64,000 nt of DNA. Source: a virus (taxonomy: Duplodnaviria > Heunggongvirae > Uroviricota > Caudoviricetes). Location of the stretch: positions 1 through 64,000 of IMG/VR virus record IMGVR_UViG_3300028031_000001; one strand, written 5' to 3'. Below, one piece after another: positions 33,497 through 52,975 of the stretch; position 1 is the stretch's first letter; every line of letters starts with the position of its first letter. The translations under genes were made by a program, and so were the position numbers. The notes under the pieces were generated by a model. It was not told the origin of the DNA, did not search any database, and saw only the letters and a program-made list of their open reading frames with translations.

Positions 33497-33499
33497 GCT

Positions 33500-33862: not shown

Positions 33863-33908
33863 TGAAAGAATTCTACTGCAATTGTTTTGGTTGTATCTTT
33901 TTCAAGAC

Positions 33909-34259: not shown

Positions 34260-34284
34260 CGTCTATCACTCCATATATTTTTTC

Positions 34285-34470
34285 TCATTCTTCTTCCAGA
34301 TAACTTATATACTCTTCCAGAACTTGTATTTCGAAGTCGTTTTCCTGGACATCTCCCATTAAAAATCCCGATTCCGTTTCGTCAGTAATTAAATTGATCT
34401 TATGATAAATTGCACTATTGTGTAGATATAAACATTCTACCCTATTTTTTAATATTCCTATATCGCTCAT
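34285..34470 (-). CDS. Hypothetical acidic protein
   Basis: 61-aa ORF. Confidence 0.3.
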   Translation of the reverse strand: MSDIGILKNRVECLYLHNSAIYHKINLITDETESGFLMGDVQENDFEIQVLEEYISYLEEE

Positions 34471-34964: not shown

Positions 34965-35275
34965 AATTTATGCGCTCTACCAGCCTTAGAATCTTTGTAT
35001 GTACAAGTTAGCCAAGGAACCCAAGAGAGGTATTTGTTGATCCAATCCGTTACCTTTAGTACATGTACGTAATGCTGATCGTATTCCTTTTGGGTGAGTA
35101 AAGGGAATCCACACAATATACACTTCTTTTTAACCAGATTAATATCTATGGTGAAGGGCAGGCTTTCGATTCCGCATTTATCACAGATTAAGGTTGACTC
35201 AGGCCACACTACTTTCTTTTCATCCATACTACCCCCTAACTCTTCTACCAAGTTCTCTAAGCATGACTCTCGCAC
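34961..35275 (-). CDS. Zinc-ribbon protein
   Basis: CDKCG ... CILCG. Confidence 0.4.
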   Translation of the reverse strand: MRESCLENLVEELGGSMDEKKVVWPESTLICDKCGIESLPFTIDINLVKKKCILCGFPLLTQKEYDQHYVHVLKVTDWINKYLSWVPWLTCTYKDSKAGRAHKL

Positions 35276-35420
35276 ACACGGCTATCATCAACTGCTTATT
35301 ATTTTCGGGTACGTCTTCCCAAGCTACTGCACTGGCCTTCCTCGTTTCGTATGCGAATGTTGGTGCCAGCTCTTCATACTGCTCGTGGAAAAATTTGGCT
35401 AGTTGTTCTGCTTCAGTCAT
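35229..35420 (-). CDS. Hypothetical protein
   Basis: 63-aa ORF. Confidence 0.3.
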   Translation of the reverse strand: MTEAEQLAKFFHEQYEELAPTFAYETRKASAVAWEDVPENNKQLMIAVCARVMLRELGRRVRG

Positions 35421-35557
35421 GAAGGTCTACCTCCGCCCAGAAAGTACCGTCTATCCATCTGGTCATAACCCTACCTCGCACGCAACTATGCTCTGATATA
35501 TCATCCATGCTCCGAGGTATTCAAAGCGAACAAATACGTCTATGTGCTCCATCATTG

Positions 35558-36100
35558 TCATATTAACAACCTCATTACCCGTCCGACTTCTTCTCGCATA
35601 TCCTGTTCGTCCGGTTGGTTGTCGAAGGCGTGCTCTATATCAGACCCCTGATCAAGGCACACTATCTGGGCTCTGTATCCATCGACCACACTGGTCTTTA
35701 CCATCATCGTAACCGCTAAGTCTGAGTCTGGTGAGCTGTCGTGAAACATACCGGGGTTTCCGTAACCGTAGGTAGTACCGGCTTCGTAAAATGTAGCGCC
35801 AATACGGCTACACAAACATGGGCCGATTAATTCAAGCCTGCTACTCTTACTACCGGGAGTACCTTGTTGCCATAAATCGGCGTTACCGTCATGGTGAGTC
35901 TTTACTGCAAACATTTCATGCCGCAGCGTACCTATTAACACGGTACTGTTGAATGTAAATCTATGGTCATGTATCCGAGCGTTTTGCACTCTGGTAGCTG
36001 GGAAGTCTTTGCTCCATATATGCAAACGCACATCTGGGGACATATAAACTTGTATGAATCCGTTGCCGTGGAAACGTGGAGTTAGTGGCTTATTCATCAT
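35558..36100 (-). CDS. Hypothetical protein, possibly a cupin / metal-dependent oxygenase-like fold
   Basis: His-rich segments (HGNGF, IHDHRF, HHDGN). Confidence 0.35.
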   Translation of the reverse strand: MMNKPLTPRFHGNGFIQVYMSPDVRLHIWSKDFPATRVQNARIHDHRFTFNSTVLIGTLRHEMFAVKTHHDGNADLWQQGTPGSKSSRLELIGPCLCSRIGATFYEAGTTYGYGNPGMFHDSSPDSDLAVTMMVKTSVVDGYRAQIVCLDQGSDIEHAFDNQPDEQDMREEVGRVMRLLI

Positions 36101-36281
36101 CAGCCTCTTCTAGGTGGATATCCAGTTTACGCTGTTTCTCCATCGCCTTCTCCAATATTATTCTGGATTTTTGATAGGTTTCGAACTTCGTTTGTTGCCT
36201 ATCGATTTCACGCATACATGTTTGTTCTAAGCTCAATAAGATATTAGCCGCGAACTGTATTTCTTGATATTCTTTCCTCAT
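36090..36281 (-). CDS. Hypothetical coiled-coil protein
   Basis: 63-aa ORF. Confidence 0.3.
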   Translation of the reverse strand: MRKEYQEIQFAANILLSLEQTCMREIDRQQTKFETYQKSRIILEKAMEKQRKLDIHLEEADDE

Positions 36282-36423
36282 ATCTTCGCTACCTCTACCA
36301 GTTTGCCAAACTCGTCACACCATTGACACTGCTGTGGTTCCCATCCATCATTGTTGCAATTACAAGGTACGGATTGACGTACCTCTGCAAGTAATTCTTG
36401 GAGATCACCTTGGGAGATATCGA

Positions 36424-36831
36424 TCATGTTTCGTACCAAGCGTCAGGTATTATGAAGGAGTCTGGGAAGGTGGGAGCTATTCCACAATAACTTGGCTCCC
36501 TCTCATTTTCATAAATGTAATAGAAGTAACTACCCAGAGCCCCTAAATATGTTGCTCTTTTCTCAGTGAACCCAATAACTTCTTCATAGGTAGGCACCTT
36601 AGACCAATCAATTTCCCTCTCAGAAGGCCCCTTACCCGTAAAGTCAGTTCTATGGAGTGATGGGTATTTAGCAGACACCAATATCCTTCCCTCCTCTGTA
36701 TAAGAAACATCATTCACCTCTAAAGGGTAGTGAGTACCATCCTGTCCATCCGAAGCCTTCACAGGGAACCAACCCTCAGAGTCACTATCAGATATAAATA
36801 CCGTGTCACCCACTTTAAATGTATCGCACAT
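36424..36831 (-). CDS. Hypothetical protein
   Basis: 135-aa ORF. Confidence 0.45.
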   Translation of the reverse strand: MCDTFKVGDTVFISDSDSEGWFPVKASDGQDGTHYPLEVNDVSYTEEGRILVSAKYPSLHRTDFTGKGPSEREIDWSKVPTYEEVIGFTEKRATYLGALGSYFYYIYENEREPSYCGIAPTFPDSFIIPDAWYET

Positions 36832-37313
36832 TACGAATCTCCCAATTTAGATGCTAAATATATAAGCATACAAGTAGACAGGATATATATAAAAACGTTC
36901 AAGTATTCTGATATAAAATTTTCAACTTTATTGCGCATCATCGCTTTCCAACACAGACCATTCACAAGTAAATTTTATATAGTCGATAAAACTACCTACT
37001 TGAAGTTCTAATTTTTTAGTAGCGCCTAGCTGATCGCAATTATCGATTAAACCGCCTATAGCCTCTGCGTTTTTTTTCAGATTTATCGCCGCATCCGGAT
37101 AAAAATATTATAAATGCAAAAATTAAAAATTTATCTTTCATTTAGATTTTTCTCAAAAACGTTAAGTATTTCCTGTACCGTAATTTCTTCATTATCAATG
37201 GCGGCTTCGATACAGCCTAAAAATAATTCTTCATCTTCTTTTCTATCATAGTATAGAAATTTAGCCATGAGGTCTGATGCTACGGCTAATATTAATTCTC
37301 TTCTATTCATAAT

Positions 37314-37514
37314 TTAAAAACTCCATATTATTTTGTAAGCGTAGTATATTGAACCAATTAAGCCGATAATCACAAATACGGCAAAAAATAATATTTGAAT
37401 GGTATGGTCTTCTGCCCAATTTGGATTGCGTTTTGTAATGTTGTGAATTATCCTACCAAATACTAAGTAAGGTATCATATATGAAGCAAACATCTGTGCA
37501 AAATATAGTGTCAT
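37314..37514 (-). CDS. Small membrane protein
   Basis: 66 aa, hydrophobic. Confidence 0.35.
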   Translation of the reverse strand: MTLYFAQMFASYMIPYLVFGRIIHNITKRNPNWAEDHTIQILFFAVFVIIGLIGSIYYAYKIIWSF

Positions 37515-37656
37515 TTTATTTCCGACCTTTTTAATTGTTTATCTAATTTTTCCGCGATATCTAGATGATATTCGGCTTCTTTCTTATGTATACGAATAAC
37601 TTCTTTTAATCGCATAACTCTGCTATGCCGCTCAACCATCGGTTTAAGTTCTGGAT

Positions 37657-37929
37657 TCATGGTTGCCACTCCCCCTCATACCTGTTGTCAACCTTGTCCT
37701 CGACTATAAGCTGGTCAACCCTTTTTTGGGCTTGGTCTATGGAGTCAAAAAACTGCGTTGTGTAGCGTAGAGGAGTGCCTTTGGAATAATATTCTACATA
37801 TATATCACTAACAATTTCATCTATCCATTCTTTTCTCCAAAAACCAGCTTGTATAGTTATATTCCTCTTTTTTCTTATGTGGTATTTTTCAGACTTCCTA
37901 TTCCTAACTATTTGATATTGTGTGTTCAT
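37657..37929 (-). CDS. Hypothetical protein
   Basis: 90-aa ORF. Confidence 0.35.
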   Translation of the reverse strand: MNTQYQIVRNRKSEKYHIRKKRNITIQAGFWRKEWIDEIVSDIYVEYYSKGTPLRYTTQFFDSIDQAQKRVDQLIVEDKVDNRYEGEWQP

Positions 37930-37938
37930 ATTTTTCCC

Positions 37939-38133
37939 CTAGTAATATTGCTCTTCTTCTTCGGATAATTTTTTACTATAAATGAAATGTTTCATGCAGT
38001 AGGATTTGTAAGATATTACAGAATTATACTCTCTAACATAAACATCGTGCTCTCCATTTGACCACGATTTAACGACTACACCTATTAGATCACCTTCTAC
38101 CACAACCACGTTTGAGAATTGAAATTTATTCAT
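37939..38133 (-). CDS. Hypothetical protein
   Basis: 64-aa ORF. Confidence 0.3.
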   Translation of the reverse strand: MNKFQFSNVVVVEGDLIGVVVKSWSNGEHDVYVREYNSVISYKSYCMKHFIYSKKLSEEEEQYY

Positions 38134-38135
38134 TA

Positions 38136-38300
38136 TTCGTGTACCTCATACCAACCCTCTACCCCGGCCCACTCATTAGCATAGTCTTCGACCATTTGAT
38201 CGAGGTTGATGCTATCTATATCAACCATTTCTGTAATCTCGTCCATATCAACTCCGGCGAAATCACAACAACCATAAAATGTTACCTTGACTTTTTTCAT
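38136..38300 (-). CDS. Hypothetical small protein (55 aa; below the ORF-track cutoff)
   Basis: MKKVKVTFYGCCDFAGVDMDE... fills the gap between flanking minus-strand genes. The tracked + strand ORF 38112..38312 here is its antisense. Confidence 0.3.
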
Positions 38301-38518
38301 GCTTGTTCGTAATTTTCTAAAAAGAATAACCCAGCAACAAGCTGTTGGTCTTCCGGGTCTTTCGGGTTGTGCGCGATCATATCTCCCGGTATAGGTGAAC
38401 CATTGTTCCTGTCGGCTGCTGATATCGACACCCTTGTCATGTCGGTATCTTTATCCCAAGGACGCATTGGTTGCAAACTCTTTTTTCTGTATAAGGTGTA
38501 GTCTTCAATTTCATTCAT
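38297..38518 (-). CDS. Hypothetical protein
   Basis: 73-aa ORF. Confidence 0.35.
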   Translation of the reverse strand: MNEIEDYTLYRKKSLQPMRPWDKDTDMTRVSISAADRNNGSPIPGDMIAHNPKDPEDQQLVAGLFFLENYEQA

Positions 38519-38567
38519 AAACGCCTTCCTTTGGATTTGTGCATATCTACATTCTTCAGGTTATGAT

Positions 38568-38879
38568 TTATATGTCATACCCTCTTAAATCGGAAGTAAA
38601 GTAGTTACTAGCTATTGTACGCAACTCATAACTAACTTCATGAGGTTTAAGTTCAACTATCTCGCCTAGCAAATTTATAAAAACTATATGTTGGTTTGCT
38701 TTATCTATCCAATAACATTGTTGTTTTTGTTTTGGCTTGCTGTAGCCATTATACACTGGAGTGCCTGATTTTGTACGCCTAAGATACTTGTGTTTATATT
38801 CGTCTTCAGACAAATTATTCAAAATATCCTTAAGGGTCTTTCGATCTTTGTATTCCTTAAGCCACATTCGTTTTTTCAC
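38568..38879 (-). CDS. Hypothetical protein
   Basis: 103-aa ORF coupled to the downstream NAMPT-like gene. Confidence 0.4.
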   Translation of the reverse strand: MKKRMWLKEYKDRKTLKDILNNLSEDEYKHKYLRRTKSGTPVYNGYSKPKQKQQCYWIDKANQHIVFINLLGEIVELKPHEVSYELRTIASNYFTSDLRGYDI

Positions 38880-40327
38880 GACCCATTTAGACGTTCTCTG
38901 ATTTCGGACAGCGTGGTTATATTTTTTATTTCACTATCTAGGAAAACAGTCTGTAAAAGACCCCCCTGTTCTTCTTCCGAGGTACATTGATCTTTGATAG
39001 ACCCGTCATGCTCGACGCGAAGCAAACCCTTTGCGGATCGCTTAAGTCCATTGTCGGTCTTTGGGTCTTTGAAGATTTCGCGATGCTCACCATCAACAAT
39101 ACCATAAGTCGCTTTGACCGCAAATCCGTGCGTGTCCCGAGTCACCATTTGGTACGTAAAGCTGCCTACTCCAAATACAATATTGCTAGATGCAAAACCA
39201 GCGGCTTCTAAATTACTTAAAATCTCATCAGCACGGTCGTAAGTGATGCTGTCTCCATATATCAAACCGATATGTGGATTAAGAACTTTGTAACCCTGTT
39301 CATTGTCAGTTCCACCAAATGTATCCCAAAGACATTGAATAGTTCCCTGAGCAATAGCGGAATCATCCGATTCGTAGTCGCCACAAATTATTTTAACCGG
39401 GTCTCCCGAGTCTGGCCGAATTACCACCTTTCCATCACGAGCTAATATTTTATCCTTAAGTTGCGGTAAGAATTCTGTAATAACTTTCCAGTAGTCCCAT
39501 GAGTCAGATACGATAGATACAATCCCTTTGGGATATACATCCTCTATCAATTCTCTAAAGGTTTCAATCTCGTTATCTTTTCCTCTTAGACACATAACGG
39601 AATGCTCTGTAGCGGGAACTGACATACCTATGATTTCGCTATCGCTGTCGGCTCCGTAGTAATTCTCTAGGAAATCAATTGCGGGAATGGTATCCGTACC
39701 TAAGAAACTTAACAAATGCCCGGCACCGCTCATAGACGCGGCCTCAACACCCGGTAAACCCCTCATAGAGAAGTCGTGTGCCTGAAAGTCTACACCGTCG
39801 GTTGTTCCGGTTGTTTGTATTGCATATTTATCAAGTAGTTGGCGATATTTATCCGCAGTACTTGCGGAAGTCATGGGTAACCACAAACTTGTTGATAATA
39901 AAGTCTCTAAGTAATTAACCAACCAAGAAAAGTCCGCGTGGGTGTTGGTTATAGTAAGCATTGGAACTCTATGGTCGCATCGAGTGCCTTCCGGAAGAGC
40001 TTTGATTAGTAGGGGAAGATATCCCAAATCCCACAAAGCCGCGACATGGCTGACGCCTACAGAGTCTTCACCAAGTGCGTTATCAAGGCGGCGTTTGTAT
40101 CGGCTAACAACTTTAGCTTTATTAACGCTAAAAAAATCTTCGTCAAACTGTTTCATTAAGTATTCTAAAATAAAATACTGAATGCCAAATACGACCGTGT
40201 AATCCATTCCGGAATAAGGCCCGCCGCGAGGCGTTAAATTTGAATAAATTTTAGTTGTCTTAGCCGGATACTGCTGAATATGTCCAACCTTATAAAAATC
40301 GGTTAAATGTATAGGGTGTAATTTCAT
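38876..40327 (-). CDS. Nicotinamide phosphoribosyltransferase-like protein (NadV/NAMPT family; an alternative reading is Namat of NARP1)
   Basis: 483 aa. NAMPT-family features run across the whole length (the Tyr-rich N-terminus FYKVGH, GTDT, SDSWDYW, GVGSF). Confidence 0.75.
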   Translation of the reverse strand: MKLHPIHLTDFYKVGHIQQYPAKTTKIYSNLTPRGGPYSGMDYTVVFGIQYFILEYLMKQFDEDFFSVNKAKVVSRYKRRLDNALGEDSVGVSHVAALWDLGYLPLLIKALPEGTRCDHRVPMLTITNTHADFSWLVNYLETLLSTSLWLPMTSASTADKYRQLLDKYAIQTTGTTDGVDFQAHDFSMRGLPGVEAASMSGAGHLLSFLGTDTIPAIDFLENYYGADSDSEIIGMSVPATEHSVMCLRGKDNEIETFRELIEDVYPKGIVSIVSDSWDYWKVITEFLPQLKDKILARDGKVVIRPDSGDPVKIICGDYESDDSAIAQGTIQCLWDTFGGTDNEQGYKVLNPHIGLIYGDSITYDRADEILSNLEAAGFASSNIVFGVGSFTYQMVTRDTHGFAVKATYGIVDGEHREIFKDPKTDNGLKRSAKGLLRVEHDGSIKDQCTSEEEQGGLLQTVFLDSEIKNITTLSEIRERLNGS

Positions 40328-41085
40328 AATACTCTTCCTTTTGGTGTGTAAATTTCGTCTATCAATCCATCAAAAACTTTAAAACCTTTTGTGAAAAAAC
40401 CATGCGATACACAAAGTATTATTTTTTTCGCACCATGCTTGCGCAACTTCTTTGCTATCTCTATGAAGGTTCTTCCTCCATCACAGATATCATCCACTAT
40501 AACGCAGGTTTTGTCAAGAACTTTTTCATAATCATGTACTATGGTTTTTAAAATTTTGCCCGTTGCCAACTGCCTAACTTTGGAGCAGTGGACTAGCCCG
40601 CCAATATTTTCAGAATGTACTTCTGCAAGTTTCTCCGACTTGTGAATGGCTCCAGCGTCTGGAGCAACAATAATCCACCCCTTTTCTAGACACGATAATG
40701 CTCCGAAAAAATTTGCGAACTGCGGAATTGATATGCAGTTATTAATTAATGCTGAAGTAACTGGCGAATGGGGGTCGAGAATTTGTACCCTTGAAAATTC
40801 GAGATTATTTACCAGATCAGTAAAAACTTTGATGGACAAAGACTCGCCCTTAGTCATTACGCGGTCTTGCCTACTAAAGGGCACATAATGCATTATCAAC
40901 AAACCAAGACTCAAATTGCAGCGTTTGATGGCGTCACAAACCAATAGAAGGTCTATAATACTGTCAGAACCATCGAACTCAAATCTAACATTAATAATTT
41001 CGCTCGTAATATTACTAACTTTTACATTCCTCTCTCCACATGGAAAGGAAAAAAATCTTACGTCCGCACCTGTTAATCTTATCAT
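40324..41085 (-). CDS. Ribose-phosphate pyrophosphokinase-like protein (Prs family; an alternative reading is ADP-ribose pyrophosphate synthetase Adps of NARP1)
   Basis: PRPP-binding motif VIVDDICDGGRTF. At 253 aa it is shorter than canonical Prs of about 315 aa. The gene is translationally coupled to the NAMPT-like gene. Confidence 0.65.
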   Translation of the reverse strand: MIRLTGADVRFFSFPCGERNVKVSNITSEIINVRFEFDGSDSIIDLLLVCDAIKRCNLSLGLLIMHYVPFSRQDRVMTKGESLSIKVFTDLVNNLEFSRVQILDPHSPVTSALINNCISIPQFANFFGALSCLEKGWIIVAPDAGAIHKSEKLAEVHSENIGGLVHCSKVRQLATGKILKTIVHDYEKVLDKTCVIVDDICDGGRTFIEIAKKLRKHGAKKIILCVSHGFFTKGFKVFDGLIDEIYTPKGRVL

Positions 41086-46044: not shown

Positions 46045-46115
46045 TGGCGGGCTGACAGAGAGTCGAACTCTGCGATCCAAGTTTTGGAGGCTCTGACGTA
46101 CCCAGTACCCAACCC
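46045..46115 (-). tRNA. tRNA-like gene, anticodon undetermined
   Basis: Clean T-arm CAGAG-TTCGACT-CTCTG, a G:U-rich acceptor stem and an encoded CCA. No canonical anticodon arm could be folded by hand. Confidence 0.35.
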
Positions 46116-46120
46116 TTAAT

Positions 46121-46207
46121 TGGAGGAAGACAGAGGGTTTGAACCCCGACCGGTTACAGCCCCTATGGGTTCAAACCATATTGCCGACCACTTCAGCGGT
46201 GCCTTCC
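46121..46207 (-). tRNA. tRNA-Ser(TGA), type II
   Basis: Acceptor GGAAGGC/GTCTTCC. Anticodon stem TATGG/CCATA with loop TTTGAAC. Long variable arm and encoded CCA. Confidence 0.6.
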
Positions 46208-46921
46208 TTAACAGGTGTTGGTTGAATCTTCTTCGTCTGATGCTTTGGATAAAAAATCTTCAACAGATTCGCCGATATTTATTGTGTCGCTGCCGCTTGT
46301 GGTATATGCACTTGCGACTGCGTTATTAGATGATGAATATAAAGCCGTGGTGTTACTCAAAGACCGCATCATCACTCCACGTTGTCCGGGTTCAAAGTTA
46401 ACCTTCAAACCTTGAAATGTAGAAAATTGGGCTTGAGCCTGTAGCCCTTCACCCAAATAGGTAAATAACCAACCTTGCTTTGTCATTTGAGCGATTAGCT
46501 CATCTAGAGCGTGTTTGGTATATCCCTTACTTGCATTTTCATCACCATCCGTATGTGTGATAAATTGTACAGGTCTATCTTCAAATCTAAATTTTTGAAT
46601 AACCAATCCCATAGCGTCATAGAGTGGCGTCCACCCACCGATTCTATAGTCATCGGTTGTTAAGTCCTTAACTCTACCCGGACTTTCTTGGAAAATTCTT
46701 TCTTCCAAGTTGTCGCTCTCAAACGTATATAGGGATAGCGTCTTAGCTGTTTTAAGGATTGATGTTTTATATTCGTTGAACGTAGATACGACAGTATTAC
46801 GATGAGAATTCATCGAGCCGGAAGCGTCTAGCAGAATAACGACGTGAGGCTTTCTCGCGTTGCTTTTCGGGGTGGACGTTACGTTCAACGGGTTTGATAT
46901 GATTTCCATATCTTTCTCCAT
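46208..46921 (-). CDS. von Willebrand factor A (vWA) domain protein
   Basis: MIDAS motif in VVILLDASGSM. The overall length is typical of a vWA domain. Confidence 0.65.
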   Translation of the reverse strand: MEKDMEIISNPLNVTSTPKSNARKPHVVILLDASGSMNSHRNTVVSTFNEYKTSILKTAKTLSLYTFESDNLEERIFQESPGRVKDLTTDDYRIGGWTPLYDAMGLVIQKFRFEDRPVQFITHTDGDENASKGYTKHALDELIAQMTKQGWLFTYLGEGLQAQAQFSTFQGLKVNFEPGQRGVMMRSLSNTTALYSSSNNAVASAYTTSGSDTINIGESVEDFLSKASDEEDSTNTC

Positions 46922-46953
46922 TGATTGAATGTTTGGAAATTATACGCCTTAAA

Positions 46954-47250
46954 CTATTTGTTGTCAAGAGCCTTGTATTTCATGTTAATTCTGTAGATCG
47001 CCTGTGATTTGCACCAATCCATCCACGGTGCTCTACAATCCCCTTGGATGTGTATACCATTCTTCTGAAAAATACAACCGCCCGGACATTTTTGCCTTGC
47101 TATCTTTTGAAGTTCCATATCTTTAAATTTATCATCGTAACCTTGGAACATATTATTTCTCCAAACTGTGTTATATAACGAACAACTAATTGCCCAATTG
47201 TTCATTATATAAGACAATTGGCAGGCCCGCCTCGAATCGAACGAGGTCAT
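46954..47250 (-). CDS. Cys-rich hypothetical protein
   Basis: 98-aa ORF (CPGGCIFQKNGIHIQGDC). Confidence 0.4.
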   Translation of the reverse strand: MTSFDSRRACQLSYIMNNWAISCSLYNTVWRNNMFQGYDDKFKDMELQKIARQKCPGGCIFQKNGIHIQGDCRAPWMDWCKSQAIYRINMKYKALDNK

Positions 47251-47293
47251 GGAAGATTCAAAATCTCCTGTGTTCCCACTTCACCACGAACCT
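47219..47293 (-). tRNA. tRNA-Gln(TTG)
   Basis: T-arm CCTCG-TTCGATT-CGAGG, anticodon loop TTTTGAA, acceptor AGGTTCG/CGGGCCT and encoded CCA. Confidence 0.6.
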
Positions 47294-47299
47294 ATTGAT

Positions 47300-47386
47300 T
47301 GGAGGAGAGAGTCAGAATTGAACTGAAAACTGTGAAATTCGCACTGGTTAGCAACCGTACCCTATAACCATATAGGATCACTCTCC
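47300..47386 (-). tRNA. tRNA-like gene, possibly type II, anticodon undetermined
   Basis: T-loop TTCAATT, acceptor GGAGAGT/TCTCTCC and a D-arm, but no clean anticodon stem. Confidence 0.3.
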
Positions 47387-47395
47387 AAAATTAGT

Positions 47396-47470
47396 TGGTG
47401 GGTCTACCGAGCAACGATCTCGGACAGTCTGATTAAAAGTCAGATATGCTGCCAATTACATCATAGACCC
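47396..47470 (-). tRNA. tRNA-Lys(TTT)
   Basis: Full cloverleaf: acceptor GGGTCTA/TAGACCC, anticodon stem TCTGA/TCAGA with loop CTTTTAA, encoded CCA. Confidence 0.7.
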
Positions 47471-47712
47471 AAAGTTTGATTGCAACTTTGCTGGTCTGGC
47501 TTAATGATGCGGATCAATTCTCTTGACCCTGTTGTTCCTGTATTCATTTTAGTTCCTTAGTAGTGAGGGTTTTGACCATCACGTAATCTTTTATCTGCCG
47601 CAGCTTCAAAGCCTTGTTCGAAGATTCGTCCTATTTTTTTGATAGACGTTTCAATAAGAATCAATAATTTTAGAGTTTCTGCTGTTGTCATTTTCATTTC
47701 AATTCCTTAATT

Positions 47713-47788
47713 TGGTAGGCCCGGAGAGACTCGAACTCTCATAAATCTGGTTAGAAGCCAGATGCCTGTCCAGTTAGACTACGAGCCT
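47713..47788 (-). tRNA. tRNA-Arg(TCT)
   Basis: Full cloverleaf: T-arm GAGAG-TTCGAGT-CTCTC, anticodon loop CTTCTAA, encoded CCA. Confidence 0.7.
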
Positions 47789-48008
47789 ATAAATCTTCAA
47801 CCTCTTCTAAAGGTTGAAATGTTCCATGTTTAGGGTCTGAATCATAATGGTATTCTAAATCTTCAAAAACTTCCCCAAACTTGCTTCGATCACCCAAAAA
47901 ACCCTCTCCATTCCAGGAACCATAGTTGAAATTTCTTCCGATTCCACGGTACAATTGTCCGAATTTCATATCTTCTAGTTTTAAATAATTATCTTTTAAG
48001 TAATTCAT
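47787..48008 (-). CDS. Hypothetical small protein within the tRNA array
   Basis: 73-aa ORF between tRNA genes. Confidence 0.35.
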   Translation of the reverse strand: MNYLKDNYLKLEDMKFGQLYRGIGRNFNYGSWNGEGFLGDRSKFGEVFEDLEYHYDSDPKHGTFQPLEEVEDL

Positions 48009-48025
48009 AATAATATTCTCGTTAT

Positions 48026-48097
48026 TGGCTCACCCACTTGGAGTCGAACCAAGAAAAATTTCCTTCGTAGGGAAATGGCATTCCTATCGCTGGGTGA
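48026..48097 (-). tRNA. tRNA-Arg(ACG)
   Basis: T-arm CTTGG-TTCGACT-CCAAG, anticodon stem TTTCC/GGAAA with loop CTACGAA, encoded CCA. Confidence 0.65.
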
Positions 48098-48103
48098 ATT
48101 GTT

Positions 48104-48179
48104 TGGTACGGGTAGAAGGTTATGCTCCTCCGGTAAGCGCTTATAAGACGCCCGTTTTCACTAATTAAACTATACCCGC
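48104..48179 (-). tRNA. tRNA-Ile(TAT)-like gene with a non-canonical T-loop AGCATAA
   Basis: Acceptor GCGGGTA/TACCCGT, D-stem GTTT/AAAC, anticodon loop CTTATAA, encoded CCA. The T-loop lacks a TTC. Confidence 0.35.
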
Positions 48180-48542
48180 ACAATGCGGGTTATCTCTGTG
48201 TCCATCACTTAATCTCCTGATTGGGCCAGTGCTCGTTAAACAATCTTGATGGTTGGCTCGTGCCAATCCATTTCTTATAAATCAGCTTGTCGCCGAAATA
48301 AACGAAAAGATTGTTATCTATTTTGACTGAGCGCATACAATCTCCTAATAAGTCGGGGCGGAAGAATCGAACTTCCTTGCGCACTGCGACTGGCTGCTCC
48401 AGCAAACCCCCATTGTTTGGTGCGGGGCTGAGTAGTTGCACCTCAGATTTCTAATACTCTGTCACAGGTTATGATCCTATTTGGAGACGCAAAAGTTATC
48501 ACGCTGTACAAACGCTTCCGTCTTGCTTACACCCGCGTTACT

Positions 48543-48617
48543 TGGTAGACCTACGAGGTTATGCTCCCCGGTTGCTCGCGTATCAGACGAGTGCCTTCAC
48601 TATTAGACGATAGGTCA
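48543..48617 (-). tRNA. tRNA-Ile(GAT)-like gene with the same unusual T-loop AGCATAA
   Basis: Anticodon stem CTCGT/GCGAG with loop CTGATAC, T-stem CGGGG/CCTCG and a CCA-like 3' end. Confidence 0.4.
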
Positions 48618-48691
48618 ATAAAATATTCTATCATTTAAGACATCTTAGAAGCGTTAAAGTTTCGTAATATATCACAAATGACACCTAAATT

Positions 48692-48761
48692 TGGGGTGAC
48701 GTAGAGAATCGAACTCTTTAGTTCCGGATCACAACCGGGCCTTCTCCCTGAGAAACGCCAC
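48692..48761 (-). tRNA. tRNA-His(GTG)
   Basis: Acceptor GTGGCGT/ACGTCAC with a C discriminator. Anticodon loop TTGTGAT. T-loop TTCGATT. Encoded CCA. Confidence 0.5.
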
Positions 48762-48999
48762 ATCTTTAAACTTAATACATACTTAAGTCGTCTTTAAGGG
48801 TCTAATATGGCCTTAAAGCAACATTATAAAATTGAACCATATTGGTTTGAAATAAGCAAATTCAACCGTATTGGTTTATTTCGTGATATTCAACTAATAT
48901 GGTTGAATTGGTCAAGGCGGCGTGTTCTGCCCACGCTCCTCCGAGTTCCAAACCCGGCAGCTTATCTGAACTTGCCCTCGCCAAGAAGGTTTTAAAATT

Positions 49000-49085
49000 T
49001 GGTACTCCGAGAAAGATTTGAACTTTCAATCCCTTACGGGCGCTGGTTTCTAAAACCAGAGTGTATACCGTTCCACCACCGGAGC
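49000..49085 (-). tRNA. tRNA-Leu(TAG), type II
   Basis: T-arm GAAAG-TTCAAAT-CTTTC, anticodon stem CTGGT/ACCAG with loop TTTAGAA, long variable arm, encoded CCA. Confidence 0.7.
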
Positions 49086-49143
49086 ATTGTTCTTAGACTT
49101 GACACTTCGACTCTAATTGTCTCATGTGAGAGGTCTGTAAAAT

Positions 49144-49229
49144 TGGTACATCCGGAGAGACTCGAACTCTCAATCCATCTCAGGCGTTGGATTTTAAGTC
49201 CAATGTGTATCCCATTCCACCACAGATGC
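49144..49229 (-). tRNA. tRNA-Leu(TAA), type II
   Basis: T-arm GAGAG-TTCGAGT-CTCTC, anticodon stem TTGGA/TCCAA with loop CTTAAAA, long variable arm, encoded CCA. Confidence 0.7.
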
Positions 49230-49317
49230 ATAAATAATGCAGAACGTCATTACCGGCATCAGCCTCGACCTTAAAGGTTACGTGACCTCATATCCAAAGA
49301 TATGTCTGTTGGGTCAA

Positions 49318-49396
49318 TTTGGTCGCCAAGGTGGGAGTCGAACCCACGTCTGTTCTGCTTATGAGGCAGAGCTGGTGCCACTCCAGTCACTCGGCA
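49318..49396 (-). tRNA. tRNA-Met/Ile2(CAT)
   Basis: T-arm GTGGG-TTCGACT-CCCAC, anticodon stem TCTGC/GCAGA with loop CTCATAA, encoded CCA. The 5' boundary is uncertain by about 1 nt. Confidence 0.55.
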
Positions 49397-49467
49397 TTAA
49401 TTTTTACTTAAAACTTTCATTATCCGCAAGTTTTGCGGAAAATACGGCTATTAATCTCCGCAATTTT

Positions 49468-49553
49468 TGGTGTGCGTGGTAAGGAATCAAACCTACCAAG
49501 CCCAGAGGCGACGGGGTTACAATCCGCCAGCTTTCTCAGTTGCATACACGCAC
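49468..49553 (-). tRNA. Putative tRNA-Tyr(GTA), type II
   Basis: Perfect acceptor GTGCGTG/CACGCAC, loop TTGTAAC in an imperfect stem, long variable arm, encoded CCA. The T-arm is non-canonical. Confidence 0.4.
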
Positions 49554-49567
49554 ATTGTCAAAAAAAA

Positions 49568-49641
49568 TGGTATTCCCTGCGGGTACTGACCCCGCGCCGT
49601 CTGGTTGAAAGCCAGATATTCTACCATTAAACTAAGGGAAT
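49568..49641 (-). tRNA. tRNA-Glu(TTC)
   Basis: Perfect acceptor ATTCCCT/AGGGAAT, anticodon stem TCTGG/CCAGA with loop CTTTCAA, T-stem GCGGG/CCCGC, encoded CCA. Confidence 0.6.
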
Positions 49642-49676
49642 AATTCCCTAAGCCTCTTGTCCTGCGTATGTATACA

Positions 49677-50084
49677 TTATTTTCTCCCAAATTCTCTTCT
49701 ATTTCTCGAAACTCTTCGAGCGTTTGCAGATTTACAAAGTTCACAACTACACTGGTAGCTTCTAGACTTATATCTGCGCATTGTTCCATGTTCTGGAACT
49801 CCAAATTCATTCTTATAATCTTGTTTTGTTTTTTTTATGTGACACGGTTTACACCTTATGGTACATTTTTCCAATTCTTTATTTCGTCTAGGAATTGCCC
49901 AAGACCATATTCTGTGTGACACTTTATCTTTTGGGTCTTTATGGTCAATTTCTAAAGATAGCATCGATCCGCAATCTGTACAACCATCTTGTCCGTTTTC
50001 TTCAAACCAATCGCTTCTTCTTTTTGCGATCCATTCTCTAGCATATTTTCTTCTCGCTTCCAAATTTTTTATTGGCATAATCAT
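49677..50084 (-). CDS. HNH endonuclease embedded in the tRNA array
   Basis: HNH motif (LEIDHKDPKDK...H) plus zinc ligands (CTDCGS ... CKPCH ... CSCELC). Confidence 0.7.
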   Translation of the reverse strand: MIMPIKNLEARRKYAREWIAKRRSDWFEENGQDGCTDCGSMLSLEIDHKDPKDKVSHRIWSWAIPRRNKELEKCTIRCKPCHIKKTKQDYKNEFGVPEHGTMRRYKSRSYQCSCELCKSANARRVSRNRREFGRK

Positions 50085-50141
50085 AATCCTATTATTTAGG
50101 GTTCAATTATACATAAAAGCACAATTATGTCAACATAAATT

Positions 50142-50216
50142 TGGAGCCCTTACGACGATTTGAACGCCGGTCTTCTGATTACAAAACAGTGGCTCTACCA
50201 ATTGAGCTATAAAGGC
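50142..50216 (-). tRNA. tRNA-Thr(TGT)-like gene
   Basis: Canonical D-arm TAGCTCAATTGGTAGAGC, T-arm CGGCG-TTCAAAT-CGTCG and encoded CCA. The anticodon stem has A:A and T:T mismatches around loop TTTGTAA, or a 9-nt loop. Confidence 0.45.
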
Positions 50217-50319
50217 ATATCTTAAATTTGGTCGTGAGACTTTCACTCACTCTCGCTTTCCAGTACGCGCATATAGGTAGCGTCTTCGCGTTTCAGATTC
50301 TGATGAGAATCTAAAGCTT

Positions 50320-50391
50320 TGGTGGATCGACAGAGTAACGATCTCTGCCTTCCGCATTGCAAGTGCAGAGTCTGTCCCATACAGCCAACCC
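50320..50391 (-). tRNA. tRNA-Ala(TGC)
   Basis: T-stem CAGAG/CTCTG, anticodon stem CTGCA/TGCGG with loop CTTGCAA, encoded CCA. Confidence 0.55.
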
Positions 50392-50533
50392 AATAACCTA
50401 ATTATTGCACAACACAATAACCTAAAATTTGTACGATCATAAGTTTACTGACATTAACCGTGCTTGGTCTGGCAAAGGGATTTTGCGGTTCCCAATGGTT
50501 TCCGGCGCACTCGAAAGTACGACTCCTAGTATT

Positions 50534-50610
50534 TGGACAGTAGAGTCGGAATTGAACCGACGTAAAGCGAGTTTGCAATCCGCTGCCTAAGCCATTCGAG
50601 CCATCTACTG
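50534..50610 (-). tRNA. tRNA-Cys(GCA)
   Basis: Perfect acceptor CAGTAGA/TCTACTG, T-arm GTCGG-TTCAATT-CCGAC, anticodon loop TTGCAAA, encoded CCA. Confidence 0.6.
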
Positions 50611-50611
50611 T

Positions 50612-50686
50612 TGGCGCACTAAGATGGGATCGAACCACCGACGCGTGAGGCTTCAACCCACCGCTCTACCACTGAGCTACAAGTGC
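50612..50686 (-). tRNA. tRNA-Phe(GAA)
   Basis: D-arm TAGCTCAGTGGTAGAGC, anticodon stem GTGGG/CTCAC with loop TTGAAGC, T-loop TTCGATC, encoded CCA. Confidence 0.65.
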
Positions 50687-50951
50687 TTAAAATTAGTGAT
50701 CGGTCTAGGTCTCCATTTATTCCCCAACTTGGGAGACTCCACGCGACCCGAAGGTTTCTGCTTTCGCTTCATCAGGCGTAAAATGTCGGGCTAGATGTCT
50801 ACAATGTCAACCAATCTGGTAGACCAACGCTCTTTCTGCCTTTCGGCAATTCTTTAATTCTTACCCCGCCTTTAATTAAGTTGTCTTTACAACTCCCCTT
50901 TATTGGTATGCCGGGGACAGTGGATTTTGCAGGCGGTCACTGTTGCGCTCT

Positions 50952-51025
50952 TGGTGCTCGGTGTTGAAATCGAATCAACGTCTCCTACTTGTAAGGAAGG
51001 TGCTAATCCCCTCAGCTAACCGAGC
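50952..51025 (-). tRNA. tRNA-Val(TAC)
   Basis: Perfect acceptor GCTCGGT/ACCGAGC, T-arm GTTGA-TTCGATT-TCAAC, anticodon loop CTTACAA, encoded CCA. Confidence 0.6.
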
Positions 51026-51321
51026 TAATTTGTTTCCTTTTCAGATTTTTATATTCTCTATTTCTTTTGCACCACGGACAATCTCCGTGTGAACGGCAAG
51101 TTCTATCTATAGACTTGCTGCCTGTGTAAGATTTTCTATTCGTTCGTGACATAAATATCCTAATATGGTGGGACAGACGCCGCTACAGCATCACCGATTA
51201 CGTTAATTATTCATAACCTACACATTTTTCGCTTTAGTAATTACTCTAAACCGACGTGTGTCGAAGGAGATTGTCGCATGACTCTCATCCTACCGCTCTA
51301 CTTTGAGCTACATCCCATGTT

Positions 51322-51396
51322 TGGTGCGTCGTCAGAGTCTCGAACTCTGCTTTCAAGGTTGGAAACCTTGCACATCGCCTACAATGTTTACAACGC
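51322..51396 (-). tRNA. tRNA-Gly(TCC)
   Basis: Acceptor GCGTTGT/ACGACGC, anticodon stem CAAGG/CCTTG with loop TTTCCAA, T-arm CAGAG-TTCGAGA-CTCTG, encoded CCA. Confidence 0.7.
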
Positions 51397-51429
51397 AATA
51401 ATCGTTTCATTTTTTGCAACGATTTAAAT

Positions 51430-51511
51430 TGGTGGAGCTGGAGCGATTCGAACGCTCGTCCGAGAGTTTCCCAATGGGCTTTACCTCTCGTCGAAACCAA
51501 AACACAGCCCC
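51430..51511 (-). tRNA. tRNA-like gene (82 nt), anticodon undetermined
   Basis: Perfect T-arm GAGCG-TTCGAAT-CGCTC, acceptor GGGGCTG/CAGCTCC and encoded CCA. The internal arm is atypical, with a 6-bp stem enclosing 18 nt. Confidence 0.35.
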
Positions 51512-51698
51512 TTATTTAAATTGTGTCGTTGATGGGGGATCGTCCCCATGCCTCCCCTACTCTATTTCAAGGCGAACTACATTATTCCACAACAACAAAA
51601 CTTCTCTAGCACATTTGATTATATCGCTACGAGCGAAACCATCTCTGGTAGTCTGCGAACGATACCTAAGTACCCTAGTACGTATCCGCTTGTTAATT

Positions 51699-51773
51699 TG
51701 GCGATCACGGTGAGAATCGAACTCACGACACGAGGATAGACAATCCACTGCTTAACCATTCAGCTTCGCAACC
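51699..51773 (-). tRNA. tRNA-Asp(GTC)-like gene
   Basis: T-arm GTGAG-TTCGATT-CTCAC, a G:U-rich acceptor, anticodon loop TTGTCTA in a stem with one T:T mismatch, encoded CCA. Confidence 0.45.
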
Positions 51774-51851
51774 TTAATTCTTTGACCACCTTTTGTTATT
51801 GCTTCTGCATTTACCTTAGCAGACCGCTCACGGGGCCGATGTCCTAGCCAG

Positions 51852-52214
51852 TTAAATAACCCTCATAATTTCTGCACGGGCTTTTATCAATTTTGAAATA
51901 TCTTGCATCGCGCCTCTGAAACTTAAAGTTTCTCCAGACGCATGGTCTGTAACTATATTTCGCTCCGCGTGGTACGTTCTAATTCTGACACTTCCAGCTC
52001 TAAATCGTTCCGTATCTTCGTGTAAACTTTTCAATACTCTCGATTTGCATACGGCAAGGGCGTTCTTTTTGTTTGTTTCGCGAGACTTGCTTCCCGTGCC
52101 TTGCGCTTTAATACCAGTAGATAAGTGTGTTACTCTACAACAATTTTGATGCTTGTTGCGATGCTGTCCACCCTTACCCGTTCCAGAAAACCATTCGATT
52201 TTATACTCATCCAT
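51852..52214 (-). CDS. RF-1 domain peptidyl-tRNA hydrolase (ArfB/YaeJ-like ribosome-rescue factor)
   Basis: GGQ motif in context: SGTGKGGQHRNKHQN...THL..TG. The protein is short (120 aa) with a basic C-terminal tail, like ArfB. Confidence 0.65.
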   Translation of the reverse strand: MDEYKIEWFSGTGKGGQHRNKHQNCCRVTHLSTGIKAQGTGSKSRETNKKNALAVCKSRVLKSLHEDTERFRAGSVRIRTYHAERNIVTDHASGETLSFRGAMQDISKLIKARAEIMRVI

Positions 52215-52636
52215 AATGGTAGTCCCTAGCCAGTTTCTTTTGTTTGTACCACTTCAGCCATTTACCAGTATTTGATTTTGACTTTTGAAGTTTTATACTT
52301 TTGTGACGCATTTTAACCTTAAATTAGTGGTTGTATTTTTGTGTCCGTCAGATGATTACCCTTACTATATTTGGGACTCTCCGATAGTTTTGTATACAAC
52401 CGTAGGGTTTAGCTCCCTCTGTAACGGTGAACTAAGGTATTCCCGTAGCTATGTTCCGATACAACTCTTTAATGCCAGTAGGTATATTTACGCTACCCGA
52501 GGTTCTTAACATTTGCTCTGCACAACCCACTGCAACATCAAAACTTTTATATTTCCCTAGCCCGCGTCTTACCGTCTGCGAAGGCGTAGGGCATACGATA
52601 CGTAGTCTAATGACCAATGAGACGCATCTTTCTTTT

Positions 52637-52713
52637 TGGCTGGCAATCAAGGGCTTGAACCTTGCGCGGTCGGATTAACAGTCCGTCGCCCACACCCGGT
52701 GGGCCTATTGCCA
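52637..52713 (-). tRNA. tRNA-Asn(GTT)
   Basis: Perfect acceptor TGGCAAT/ATTGCCA, T-arm CAAGG-TTCAAGC-CCTTG, anticodon loop CTGTTAA, encoded CCA. Confidence 0.55.
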
Positions 52714-52975
52714 ATAATTAAATCAGCTTCTCGGTGGTTTCCTAGTGAGGCTTGTTAGAAGGGGTGGGGACTTAAATTTTTTACTATCTTCTTTTAGCCT
52801 CTCTAGCGTTGCACCGAGAGGCTGCAAAGCTAAGATCAATCGATCATATTGAGGGGGCGCTGATCTTCCAGCCACGGACTTGTCGCCGAGCCTGACCCCG
52901 TAATCTCGAAATGTTTGGTTGACCTAAAATAATTCATGCAAGTATTATGCTCCTATTTAATTCAATTGTCAAGTT

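Follow-up and report, generated by a model that had tools for sequence, protein, structure and literature searches.

Here, we describe a cluster of RNA and protein genes in a stretch of viral DNA of 64,000 nt (positions 1 to 64,000 of the IMG/VR record IMGVR_UViG_3300028031_000001), to which we refer as the window. Within the 64-kb window, every tRNA-shaped gene is encoded on the minus strand and falls into the interval 46045..52713. This region is the phage's own tRNA complement, with small open reading frames (ORFs) and an HNH endonuclease gene interspersed in the style of T5-like phages. The tRNA array itself is ordinary, another member of the well-known class of phage tRNA arrays. The most unusual element of the region is a tmRNA-like gene at 51430..51511, which, judged by its sequence, is a tRNA-like domain (TLD) from a transfer-messenger RNA (tmRNA) without the messenger part and not a tRNA, and which we call a mini-tmRNA. 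It shares the array with a gene for a truncated class-I release factor (RF). The features are listed below in descending order of coordinates, ps90 and ps80 denoting relaxed ARAGORN settings and bits denoting Rfam scores.

52944..52972, minus strand: promoter-like site (11/12, TTGACA-17-CATAAT) between the helicase stop and the first tRNA, from a consensus scan only.
52637..52713, minus strand: tRNA-Asn (GUU), first gene of the array; ARAGORN default, Rfam 44 bits, CCA encoded.
51852..52214, minus strand: truncated class-I release factor, 120 aa, by sequence; Pfam RF-1, 2.3e-14.
51699..51773, minus strand: tRNA-Asp (GUC); Rfam 47.8 bits, ARAGORN at ps90 only, CCA encoded.
51430..51511, minus strand: TLD-only mini-tmRNA, 82 nt; Rfam RF00023, 61.6 bits.
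51322..51396, minus strand: tRNA-Gly (UCC); ARAGORN default, Rfam 44.7 bits.
51012..51152, minus strand: unverified 46-aa ORF containing Cys, from the ORF list, without family match.
50952..51025, minus strand: tRNA-Val (UAC); ARAGORN default, Rfam.
50612..50686, minus strand: tRNA-Phe (GAA); ARAGORN default, Rfam.
50534..50610, minus strand: tRNA-Cys (GCA), 1 nt after tRNA-Phe; ARAGORN default, Rfam.
50320..50391, minus strand: probable tRNA-Ala (UGC); ARAGORN at ps90 only, CCA and common flanks.
50142..50216, minus strand: tRNA-Thr (UGU); ARAGORN default, Rfam.
50106..50133, minus strand: sigma-70 consensus site (12/12, TTGACA-16-TATAAT) directly upstream of the HNH gene, from a pattern scan.
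49677..50084, minus strand: HNH endonuclease, 135 aa; phrog_4234, 2.2e-34.
49568..49641, minus strand: tRNA-Glu (UUC), followed by a T8 run; ARAGORN default, Rfam.
49468..49553, minus strand: possible tRNA-Tyr (GUA), class II, with an 8-nt T loop; ARAGORN at ps80 only, CCA and common flanks.
49320..49396, minus strand: tRNA with a CAU anticodon (Met or Ile2 type); ARAGORN default, Rfam.
49144..49229, minus strand: tRNA-Leu (UAA); ARAGORN default, Rfam.
49000..49085, minus strand: tRNA-Leu (UAG); ARAGORN default, Rfam.
48692..48761, minus strand: probable tRNA-His (GUG); ARAGORN at ps90, Rfam 21.8 bits (E 0.7), CCA.
48543..48617, minus strand: tRNA-Ile (GAU); Rfam 36.9 bits, ARAGORN at ps90.
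48104..48179, minus strand: tRNA-Ile (UAU), reading ATA; ARAGORN default, Rfam.
48026..48097, minus strand: tRNA-Arg (ACG) with a poor D arm and acceptor strands TCACCCA/TGGGTGA, then G and CCA; ARAGORN default, re-framed.
47787..48008, minus strand: conserved phage protein, 73 aa, function unassigned; phrog_3740, 2e-12.
47713..47788, minus strand: tRNA-Arg (UCU), reading AGA; ARAGORN default, Rfam.
47396..47470, minus strand: tRNA-Lys (UUU); ARAGORN default, Rfam.
47300..47386, minus strand: aberrant Ser-like class II gene with an 8-nt anticodon loop (GCUA); ARAGORN at ps90, fold, CCA.
47219..47293, minus strand: tRNA-Gln (UUG); ARAGORN default, Rfam.
46954..47250, minus strand: Cys-containing ORF, from the ORF list, without family match.
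46939..46967, minus strand: sigma-70 consensus site (12/12) directly upstream of the vWA-like ORF, from a pattern scan.
46208..46921, minus strand: vWA-like protein with a DASGS MIDAS-type motif; phrog_7371, 5e-22.
46121..46207, minus strand: probable tRNA-Ser (UGA), class II; ARAGORN at ps90, Rfam tRNA-Sec model 23 bits, CCA.
46045..46115, minus strand: probable tRNA-Trp (CCA) with a short D arm, last gene of the array; ARAGORN at ps90, CCA and G73.

With its default settings, ARAGORN called 15 tRNA genes in the window; all of them map to the minus strand within 47219..52713, and the rest of the window yielded none. The Rfam model RF00005 at its gathering score of 29 bits returned 16 genes. 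It added Ile-GAU (match at 48546..48617) and Asp-GUC (match at 51702..51773) to the default ARAGORN set and gave no match for Arg-ACG, though the latter belongs to that set. The union of both searches is a robust set of 17 tRNA genes. Relaxed ARAGORN settings added six more, namely Trp-CCA, Ser-UGA, the Ser-like gene, His-GUG and Ala-UGC at ps90 and Tyr-GUA at ps80, and together with the tmRNA-like gene this amounts to 24 tRNA-shaped genes. A minus-strand array of at least 23 tRNA or tRNA-like genes had been proposed from the letters alone (the sequence-only reading). It is borne out by ARAGORN and Rfam, with 24 genes counted across thresholds and with every amino-acid identity then given recovered at some threshold. 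Automated finders did not reject most of the candidates, since 17 pass default ARAGORN or Rfam. No further tRNA genes were found in the 76% of the 108,577-bp contig (ERZ27262698 k141_1618865) that was read.

The genes of the array are framed in a strikingly uniform way. An encoded CCA end, previously ascribed to most of them, is present in all 24 (Arg-ACG being counted in its re-framed form), and the base that follows is A in 23 of the 24, often as CCAAAUU. On the 5' side, every gene is preceded by an AT-rich leader, often AAUUAA, with A or T at position -1 throughout. For Arg-ACG, the frame given by ARAGORN (48030..48100) is poorer than the one three bases downstream (48026..48097), which offers seven Watson-Crick acceptor pairs, G73 and CCA. 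The uniform flanks of the 24 RNA genes possibly represent a shared processing signal. The genes are also tightly packed: at five junctions, fewer than 10 nt separate neighbours (1, 5, 5, 6 and 9 nt), as the sequence-only reading had noted for several.

Which codons does this set serve? In 60 ORFs of the window (13,424 codons), the GC content at third codon positions (GC3) is 0.35. The commonest codons are ATA (45% of Ile), AGA (39% of Arg) and TTA (35% of Leu), and AAA, GAA and CAA each account for about 68% of their own codon pair. Watson-Crick readers of such A-ending codons are encoded as Ile-UAU, Arg-UCU, Leu-UAA, Leu-UAG, Lys-UUU, Glu-UUC and Gln-UUG, and further tRNAs with uridine at position 34 (U34) as Thr-UGU, Val-UAC, Gly-UCC, Ser-UGA and Ala-UGC. 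Of all codons, 45% can be read by Watson-Crick pairing and 77% once wobble is allowed; 19 of the 20 amino acids are covered, and only Pro is left without a tRNA. The anticodon set fits the AT-rich codon use of the phage. Indeed, codon compensation in a GC-richer host predicts U34 anticodons that match the A-ending codons of the phage, as seen here, and the phage side of the compensation suggested earlier (GC3 and U34 anticodons against ATA, AGA and TTA) is thereby upheld. On the host side, the nearest relatives by the helicase gene adjoining the array infect Pseudomonas, Rhizobium and Stenotrophomonas. We consider it probable that the tRNAs supply a decoding capacity for AT-rich codons that would be scarce in a GC-richer proteobacterial host, with transcription from the promoter-like sites and processing by host enzymes. 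The mostly U34 tRNAs would add capacity for ATA, AGA, TTA, CTA, AAA, GAA and CAA. The array would be transcribed in the direction of the helicase gene, from the promoter-like site downstream of that gene and from internal promoters, and host RNase P and 3' processing enzymes would cut the tRNAs out.

Alternatively, the array might mainly replace host tRNAs that are lost to anticodon nucleases or host shut-off, codon matching being secondary. The near completeness of the set, which includes tRNAs for non-rare codons, would suit such a role, and so would the presence of Lys-UUU, a classic target of an anticodon nuclease (PrrC). A related array (L095) holds an RNA ligase, PTH2 and a tmRNA, and a NAD-salvage gene pair in the window suggests an investment in counter-defence. 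Nevertheless, the ORF list, Pfam and PHROG revealed no enzyme for RNA repair (Pnkp or Rnl) within the array or beside it, and the strong U34 bias toward the A-ending codons of the phage is what codon compensation predicts, so that we regard replacement as the main role as unlikely. The two roles are not exclusive. The clean match between tRNAs and codons makes the array a good test case for a known phage strategy.

The mini-tmRNA is a different matter. The Rfam tmRNA model RF00023 matches 51430..51511 well above its gathering score of 47 bits, in an alignment that spans model positions 1-374 and lacks 308 of the positions in between. The sequence of the RNA is GGGGCUGUGUUUUGGUUUCGACGAGAGGUAAAGCCCAUUGGGAAACUCUCGGACGAGCGUUCGAAUCGCUCCAGCUCCACCA. 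Its acceptor strands GGGGCUG and CAGCUCC form seven pairs including G3:U70 and are followed by A73-CCA; the neck is of the form GG...UUCGAC/GGAC, a five-pair T arm carries a GUUCGAAUC loop, and helix 2 consists of six pairs and is capped by an 18-nt A-rich loop that holds a three-pair hairpin. Thus, G1-C72, G3:U70, A73-CCA, the T arm and the UUCGAC...GGAC neck, which characterize the tRNA-like domain of tmRNAs, are all found, on an acceptor stem that we take to be that of E. coli tmRNA. What is missing is the messenger part. The two neck strands are 28 nt apart, 18 of which are unpaired or in the small hairpin. The pseudoknots PK1-PK4 are absent, in line with the 308 of 374 deleted model positions. 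There is no tag ORF either: from the helix-2 loop to the 3' end, no frame offers a sense codon followed by an in-frame stop, and the sole stop triplet, UAA, stands at the start of the loop. ARAGORN at default calls no tmRNA at this position, and the sequence-only reading had counted the element among the tRNAs, an assignment that the RF00023 match corrects. Its neighbours on the same strand are tRNA-Asp, which precedes it by 187 nt, and tRNA-Gly, which follows 33 nt later, and its flanks and CCA end carry the signature of the array tRNAs. Based on the common strand, the location within the array and the shared flanks, we infer that it is made and processed together with them. A permuted or two-piece tmRNA was considered and rejected: the 5' acceptor strand comes first, followed by the hairpin, the T arm and the 3' acceptor strand, and the model RF04321 finds no match in the window. 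Unannotated permuted tmRNAs are present in two cultured phages, in Pseudomonas phage SM1 (L091, NC_041877, ~54.0-54.4 kb, RF04321 118.6 bits) and in Xanthomonas phage Rb1 (L093, PQ569993, ~16.3-16.6 kb, RF04321 103.4 bits).

Does the reduced design recur elsewhere? We scanned IMG/VR with a pattern that demands TTCGAC, a gap of 20-50 nt and GGACGNNNGTTCGANTC, and nothing else, and obtained 85 matching contigs. In 71 of these, the 5' strand starts with GG, all seven acceptor pairs form, and G3:U70 and A73 are present, although the pattern imposes none of these features. The 71 elements comprise 49 unique sequences of 74-91 nt with 18 types of acceptor stem. Together with the window copy (50 unique sequences), they show 15 types of T stem, all with five of five pairs, and 45 different helix-2 strands that are still complementary, mostly over 4-7 contiguous pairs. 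These pair counts come from an anchored-segment script; a MAFFT alignment was mis-registered at the 5' ends and was not used. G1-C72, G2-C71, G3:U70 and A73 are invariant in all 71, and stem positions 4-7 vary. Rfam places 16 of 17 tested elements above the tmRNA gathering score (50-78 bits). Default ARAGORN calls three of the 71 and misses the other 68, and tRNAscan-SE probably misses them likewise, because the mini-tmRNA has no anticodon arm. At 18 loci, tRNA genes are present as well, always on the same strand, and six of these elements lie inside arrays of 8-26 tRNAs; the other 53 loci show no tRNA in the flanking DNA examined (often a few kb). The contigs are unrelated to the window phage, the only shared protein being ribonucleotide reductase (RNR). 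In five loci with the acceptor stem GGGGUAG (L004, L005, L015, L032 and L062), an RNR gene lies a few hundred bases away and no tRNA is nearby.

The same pattern was run against bacterial and archaeal genomes, one per species, and matched at least 120 loci. None of the 120 matches listed has the TLD-only design; they are mostly 3' ends of ordinary tmRNA genes or coding sequence, with one near miss on a short contig of a metagenome-assembled genome. Within the sample scanned, the TLD-only design is a viral feature. In the open-access literature, we found no description of a family of phage TLD-only RNAs. A single phage case, mycobacteriophage DS6A, is marked 'TLD only' on the tmRNA Website (PMC4131195, Hudson, Lau and Williams 2014; PMC11915505). 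The passages of these papers that deal with it state that tmRNA is strongly inhibited by a DS6A-like molecule, whether or not the latter can be charged, and that a titration of SmpB may be the reason (PMC4131195 citing Mao et al. 2009; PMC11915505). Full tmRNAs occur in ~2% of phage genomes according to ARAGORN (PMC9004378).

The second uncommon gene of the array is the 120-aa ORF that had been labelled an ArfB-like factor. It carries the Pfam domain RF-1 (PF00472), with GGQ at residues 15-17. Its NCBIfam matches are only prfA (positions 214-322 of 347), prfB and prfH. A PDB sequence search is led by RF1 (2fvo, 6.7e-11), with the ICT1-type C12orf65 only at 2e-3, and the alignment of the protein with RF1 covers RF1 residues 197-301, taking in both the GGQ loop and the RIRTYHAERNIVTDH hairpin. 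For an AlphaFold2 model with a mean predicted local distance difference test score of 86.2, the top Foldseek matches are all RF1, RF2 and mtRF1; PrfH comes only at rank 48, and ArfB and ICT1 are absent from the matches at E<=1e-3. In a BLASTP comparison with E. coli ArfB (in an approximate sequence), ~35 residues around GGQ align. The basic C-terminal tail of ArfB is absent, the phage protein ending at residue 120 without a K/R-rich tail, and the C-terminal helix 107-119, conserved as a MIEAR motif, aligns to the C-terminal region of RF1/RF2. Taken together, the family matches, the PDB alignment, the predicted fold and the short ArfB match identify the protein as the C-terminal half of an RF1/RF2-type class-I release factor. 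The GGQ domain of the earlier label thus stands and its ArfB identity does not. Domain 3 of RF1/RF2 with GGQ and the C-terminal IRTY..VTDH hairpin is retained, and the codon-recognition domain 2 (PxT or SPF motif) and domain 1 are absent, for which reason the protein should not read stop codons as RF1/RF2 do.

This truncated factor is not peculiar to the window. At least 855 homologues were found at E<=1e-5, of which the best 120 listed measure 118-165 aa, and the GGQ and an NCC motif are invariant in the family. The nearest homologues (61-63% identity) occur in unrelated phages. In seven of nine independent contexts, the gene lies in or beside tRNA genes: besides the window, these are L088 and L089 (10 tRNAs), L094 (8), L095 (27), L221 (28, the gene standing between tRNA-Leu and tRNA-Pro) and L222 (24, on a 356-kb contig). 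Versions of ~124 aa are found at 10001..10375 in L221, 10001..10375 in L222 and 10001..10378 in L095, on unrelated contigs of 139-356 kb and 73 kb. In three of the nine contexts (the window, L095 and L221), a tmRNA-type gene lies less than 10 kb away. In the window, the truncated-RF gene is 340 nt upstream of the mini-tmRNA; in L095, which also carries PTH2 and RNA ligase genes, and in L221, a full-length tmRNA with an ALAA-type tag (AANDDSYEDFALAA and ANAANDEVFALAA, respectively) is found within 6 kb of it. An obligatory pair of mini-tmRNA and truncated RF was considered and discarded: phmmer found no GGQ ORF in the DNA examined at the 71 loci, and the only match, L063, turned out to be a false pattern match. 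The two genes are linked through tRNA arrays and not as an obligatory pair.

How could an RNA that keeps the features for alanine charging and SmpB binding, yet cannot tag proteins, be of use to a phage? Recognition by alanyl-tRNA synthetase (AlaRS) rests on G3:U70 and A73. By analogy, we speculate that host AlaRS charges the mini-tmRNA through these elements, that the RNA binds host SmpB, and that the charged form competes with host tmRNA at stalled or non-stop ribosomes. Rescue would be diverted to tag-free release, because the mini-tmRNA has no messenger part from which a degradation tag could be read. The truncated RF may then hydrolyse peptidyl-tRNA or peptidyl-Ala-TLD without reading a stop codon. 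Published work on the binding step reports that SmpB contacts the elbow and the neck of the TLD, that TLD and SmpB together mimic a whole tRNA, and that a TLD construct of 25 nt from the 5' end and 34 nt from the 3' end binds SmpB (PMC3985003). To this scenario of competition and diverted rescue we would give slightly less than even odds. The invariance of G3:U70 and A73 suggests that charging matters, and since the charging determinants are so strictly conserved, an action on the ribosome, as an inhibitor or as a tag-free rescuer, is favoured over a passive titration of SmpB.

If it were a working tag-free rescuer, Ala-TLD together with host SmpB and EF-Tu would enter non-stop ribosomes and accept the nascent chain, and the GGQ protein of the phage or host ArfB/Pth would release it; ribosomes would be recycled, and phage proteins would escape being marked for degradation. 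This idea strikes us as rather doubtful. Selection for alanylation is indicated by the pairs G1-C72, G2-C71 and G3:U70 with A73, constant in 71 of 71 elements next to variable positions 4-7, and the current model of trans-translation has Ala-TLD.SmpB accommodate and receive the peptide before the messenger function comes into play (PMC3985003). In the window, a GGQ-only factor is encoded close by, and related factors accompany full tmRNAs in L095 and L221. Yet, in the flanking DNA examined, no mini-tmRNA locus besides the window has the GGQ gene. We also know of no way in which a GGQ domain that lacks the ArfB tail and an adaptor could sense an empty A site.

Beyond the window, we put forward, with more reserve than the scenario of diverted rescue, that TLD-only mini-tmRNAs constitute a widespread and essentially phage-specific class of small RNAs that hijack SmpB, AlaRS and EF-Tu to reprogramme ribosome rescue. 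With the same reserve, we propose that their effect may be to stop ssrA tagging or else to allow rescue without a tag, and that in some genomes a truncated GGQ factor that acts independently of codons may take part.

Taken as a whole, our preferred explanation is a phage tRNA array that supplies decoding capacity and in which a mini-tmRNA and a truncated release factor may alter the rescue of stalled host ribosomes; we assign it a probability of roughly 0.8. Several points weigh against it. The scarcity of matching tRNAs in the host is assumed. The function proposed for the mini-tmRNA rests on analogy, and its activity would depend on host SmpB, since a phmmer search of the window, of an additional 20 kb of flanking sequence and of the viral loci turned up no SmpB-like ORF (with an approximate E. 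coli query that is weak for divergent SmpB). A pure titration of SmpB needs no charging, and the inhibition mentioned above is, in the passage that reports it, independent of charging (PMC4131195). The DS6A record JN698994 gave neither an RF00023 match at the gathering score nor a pattern match for its element. The truncated RF was absent from the 71 other mini-tmRNA loci in a phmmer search of flanks that often span a few kb. Finally, six of the tRNA genes (Trp, Ser-UGA, Ser-like, His, Ala and Tyr) stay below the default thresholds of ARAGORN and Rfam, and the Ser-like gene with its 8-nt anticodon loop may be non-functional.

Could these six genes be pseudogenes or chance folds, the functional array then consisting of 17 tRNAs? 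In their cloverleaves, the D arm is short or irregular or the T loop is unusual, their minimum-free-energy z-scores lie between -1.05 and -2.23, and, apart from His and from Ser (matched by the tRNA-Sec model), they are unmatched by Rfam at E<=1. The Ala-UGC gene, for instance, combines G3:U70 with a non-canonical T loop and a short D loop. However, in each of the six, the acceptor stem comprises 7 bp, an A follows the encoded CCA and the common AT-rich leader is present, as in the robust genes, which makes chance folds unlikely; a CCA at the correct place is expected by chance at ~1% (an estimate from base frequencies). The identity elements are consistent (G3:U70 in the Ala gene, G73 in the Trp gene), and the six supply amino acids otherwise missing from the set. 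We thus consider their dismissal improbable. The Ser-like gene at 47300..47386, in which the minimum-free-energy fold places GCU in a 3-nt loop, could be a pseudogene or decayed tRNA-Ser(GCU), or a four-base-anticodon oddity. The sequence-only reading had expected the true count to be higher still, but its three additional candidates gain no support: 48338..48405 and 48416..48480 have no Rfam match at E<=10 (searched over 48190..48545), 51226..51310 has none at E<=1, and none of the three shows a cloverleaf or a CCA. On the minus strand, 48338..48415 amounts at most to a remnant of tRNA shape, in which a 5-bp acceptor stem without CCA goes together with two short hairpins and a good T arm (GGAAG UUCGAUU CUUCC), inside a doubtful ORF (48205..48441).

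That the mini-tmRNA is a functionless remnant of a full-length tmRNA or an ssrA-derived att-site fragment is very improbable: some phages do carry full tmRNAs, and 3' ssrA fragments are common in temperate phages, with partial matches (the 3' third of the query) in P2-like phages, but here both TLD halves are present and perfectly paired, the stems covary across 50 unique sequences from unrelated contigs, the length is held at 74-91 nt, CCA and flanks are those of tRNAs inside an array, and no integrase was noticed nearby.

The protein genes between the tRNAs had been read as a vWA-domain protein, a Cys-rich protein, an HNH endonuclease and the ArfB-like factor, of which the HNH gene and the GGQ domain hold up well. 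The HNH assignment is supported by two further HNH PHROGs, Pfam being silent for this ORF at 0.01. The vWA assignment is plausible but weak: a PDB match to 5a8j ('VWA2', 3e-4) and the DASGS motif, identified by eye, speak for it, and Pfam VWA_CoxE (0.0085) stays below the cut-off. The two Cys-containing ORFs (46954..47250 and 51012..51152) have no family match in Pfam or PHROG. The former probably starts at an internal ATG, because its listed start lies inside tRNA-Gln. The two perfect sigma-70 sites suggest that the HNH and vWA-like ORFs have strong early-type promoters of their own; all promoter-like sites are matches to the sigma-70 consensus pattern only.

By its gene content, the source is a tailed phage, with genes for a terminase large subunit and a GP7-type capsid protein in the window and its flanks. 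Also encoded there are RecA, an SbcC-like ATPase, RNR with an intein-like insert, gp32, a DnaE-type polymerase, a primase and a NAMPT/PRPP-synthetase pair. These hallmark genes and the T5-like layout agree with the core of the sequence-only reading, the own tRNA complement of a large phage. A megablast of the whole region against 50,697 phage records gave no match, and a helicase-based search of IMG/VR found no relative. The helicase adjoining the array shares ~50% identity with Pseudomonas Nickievirus phages (~112 kb) and 42-48% with Rhizobium and Stenotrophomonas phages, which shows, at the level of sequence, a distant relative of Nickievirus. On the minus strand, NAMPT (38876..40327) and PRPP synthetase (40324..41085) overlap by 4 nt; such NAD-salvage pairs are tied to the escape of phages from NAD-depleting defences. 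The RNR gene (6908..9232, plus strand) has a weak match to an intein-splicing domain mid-protein, suggesting an intein insertion. Among the products of the upstream flank (L226, contig 20083..41009) are a CobT-like protein with an AAA_5 ATPase, a guanylate kinase, the DnaE-type polymerase, which carries a UDG domain, and a weak Fic-domain protein. In the DS6A record (L099/L100), an RtcB-like RNA ligase lies at 49300..50502.

In summary, two rarely described elements stand out in an otherwise ordinary array: a TLD-only mini-tmRNA, of which one published phage case existed and at least 50 distinct viral versions are found here, and, as a second unstudied player, a truncated release factor whose gene is repeatedly met within the tRNA arrays of phages. 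If mini-tmRNAs act on stalled ribosomes, they would be a compact natural switch that turns trans-translation off or renders it tag-free, and a direct handle on the interest of phages in ribosome rescue.

With canonical tmRNA (ssrA, RF00023), the window element shares the same TLD, including G3:U70, the UUCGAC/GGAC neck, the T arm and ACCA. It differs in having no resume codon, tag ORF or pseudoknot, and 28 nt instead of ~300 between its halves; full-length tmRNAs are present in the tRNA arrays of other phages (L095 and L221). The CDS-less tmRNAs of organelles (jakobid mitochondria and Mallomonadaceae plastids), of ~65 bp and thought to aid with incomplete mRNAs (PMC11915505), are likewise natural genes reduced to about the tRNA-like domain. 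These are vertically inherited and work with nuclear SmpB, whereas the phage form has a scattered, horizontal distribution and depends on the SmpB of the host. The DS6A element, known by its published description only, resembles ours in being phage-encoded, with a complete TLD and no tag ORF. DS6A is a single case from a temperate actinophage, whereas the window element lies in the tRNA array of an apparently virulent phage of proteobacterial type and is one of at least 50 distinct viral sequences. The truncated RF recalls ArfB (YaeJ) and ICT1 as a small, stand-alone GGQ peptidyl-tRNA hydrolase domain that is plausibly codon-independent, but it is without the basic C-terminal tail of ArfB.

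Huge phages encode tRNAs, release factors, tmRNA and SmpB, which has been interpreted as control of host translation (PMC7162821, Al-Shayeb et al. 2020). Compared to these, the genome of the window is only ~109 kb long and combines a truncated release factor with a TLD-only tmRNA, and the search for SmpB found none. In Nickievirus Nican01, a cluster of tRNAs occupies the corresponding position behind the helicase and is bordered on its other side by divergent ParB genes; it differs in counting only five tRNAs, on the strand opposite the helicase. T5-like phages (e.g. Proteus phage 1, Demerecviridae) likewise have tens of tRNAs on one strand, tightly spaced and with small ORFs between them. Compared to the regions of both, the array of the window additionally holds the mini-tmRNA and the truncated release factor.

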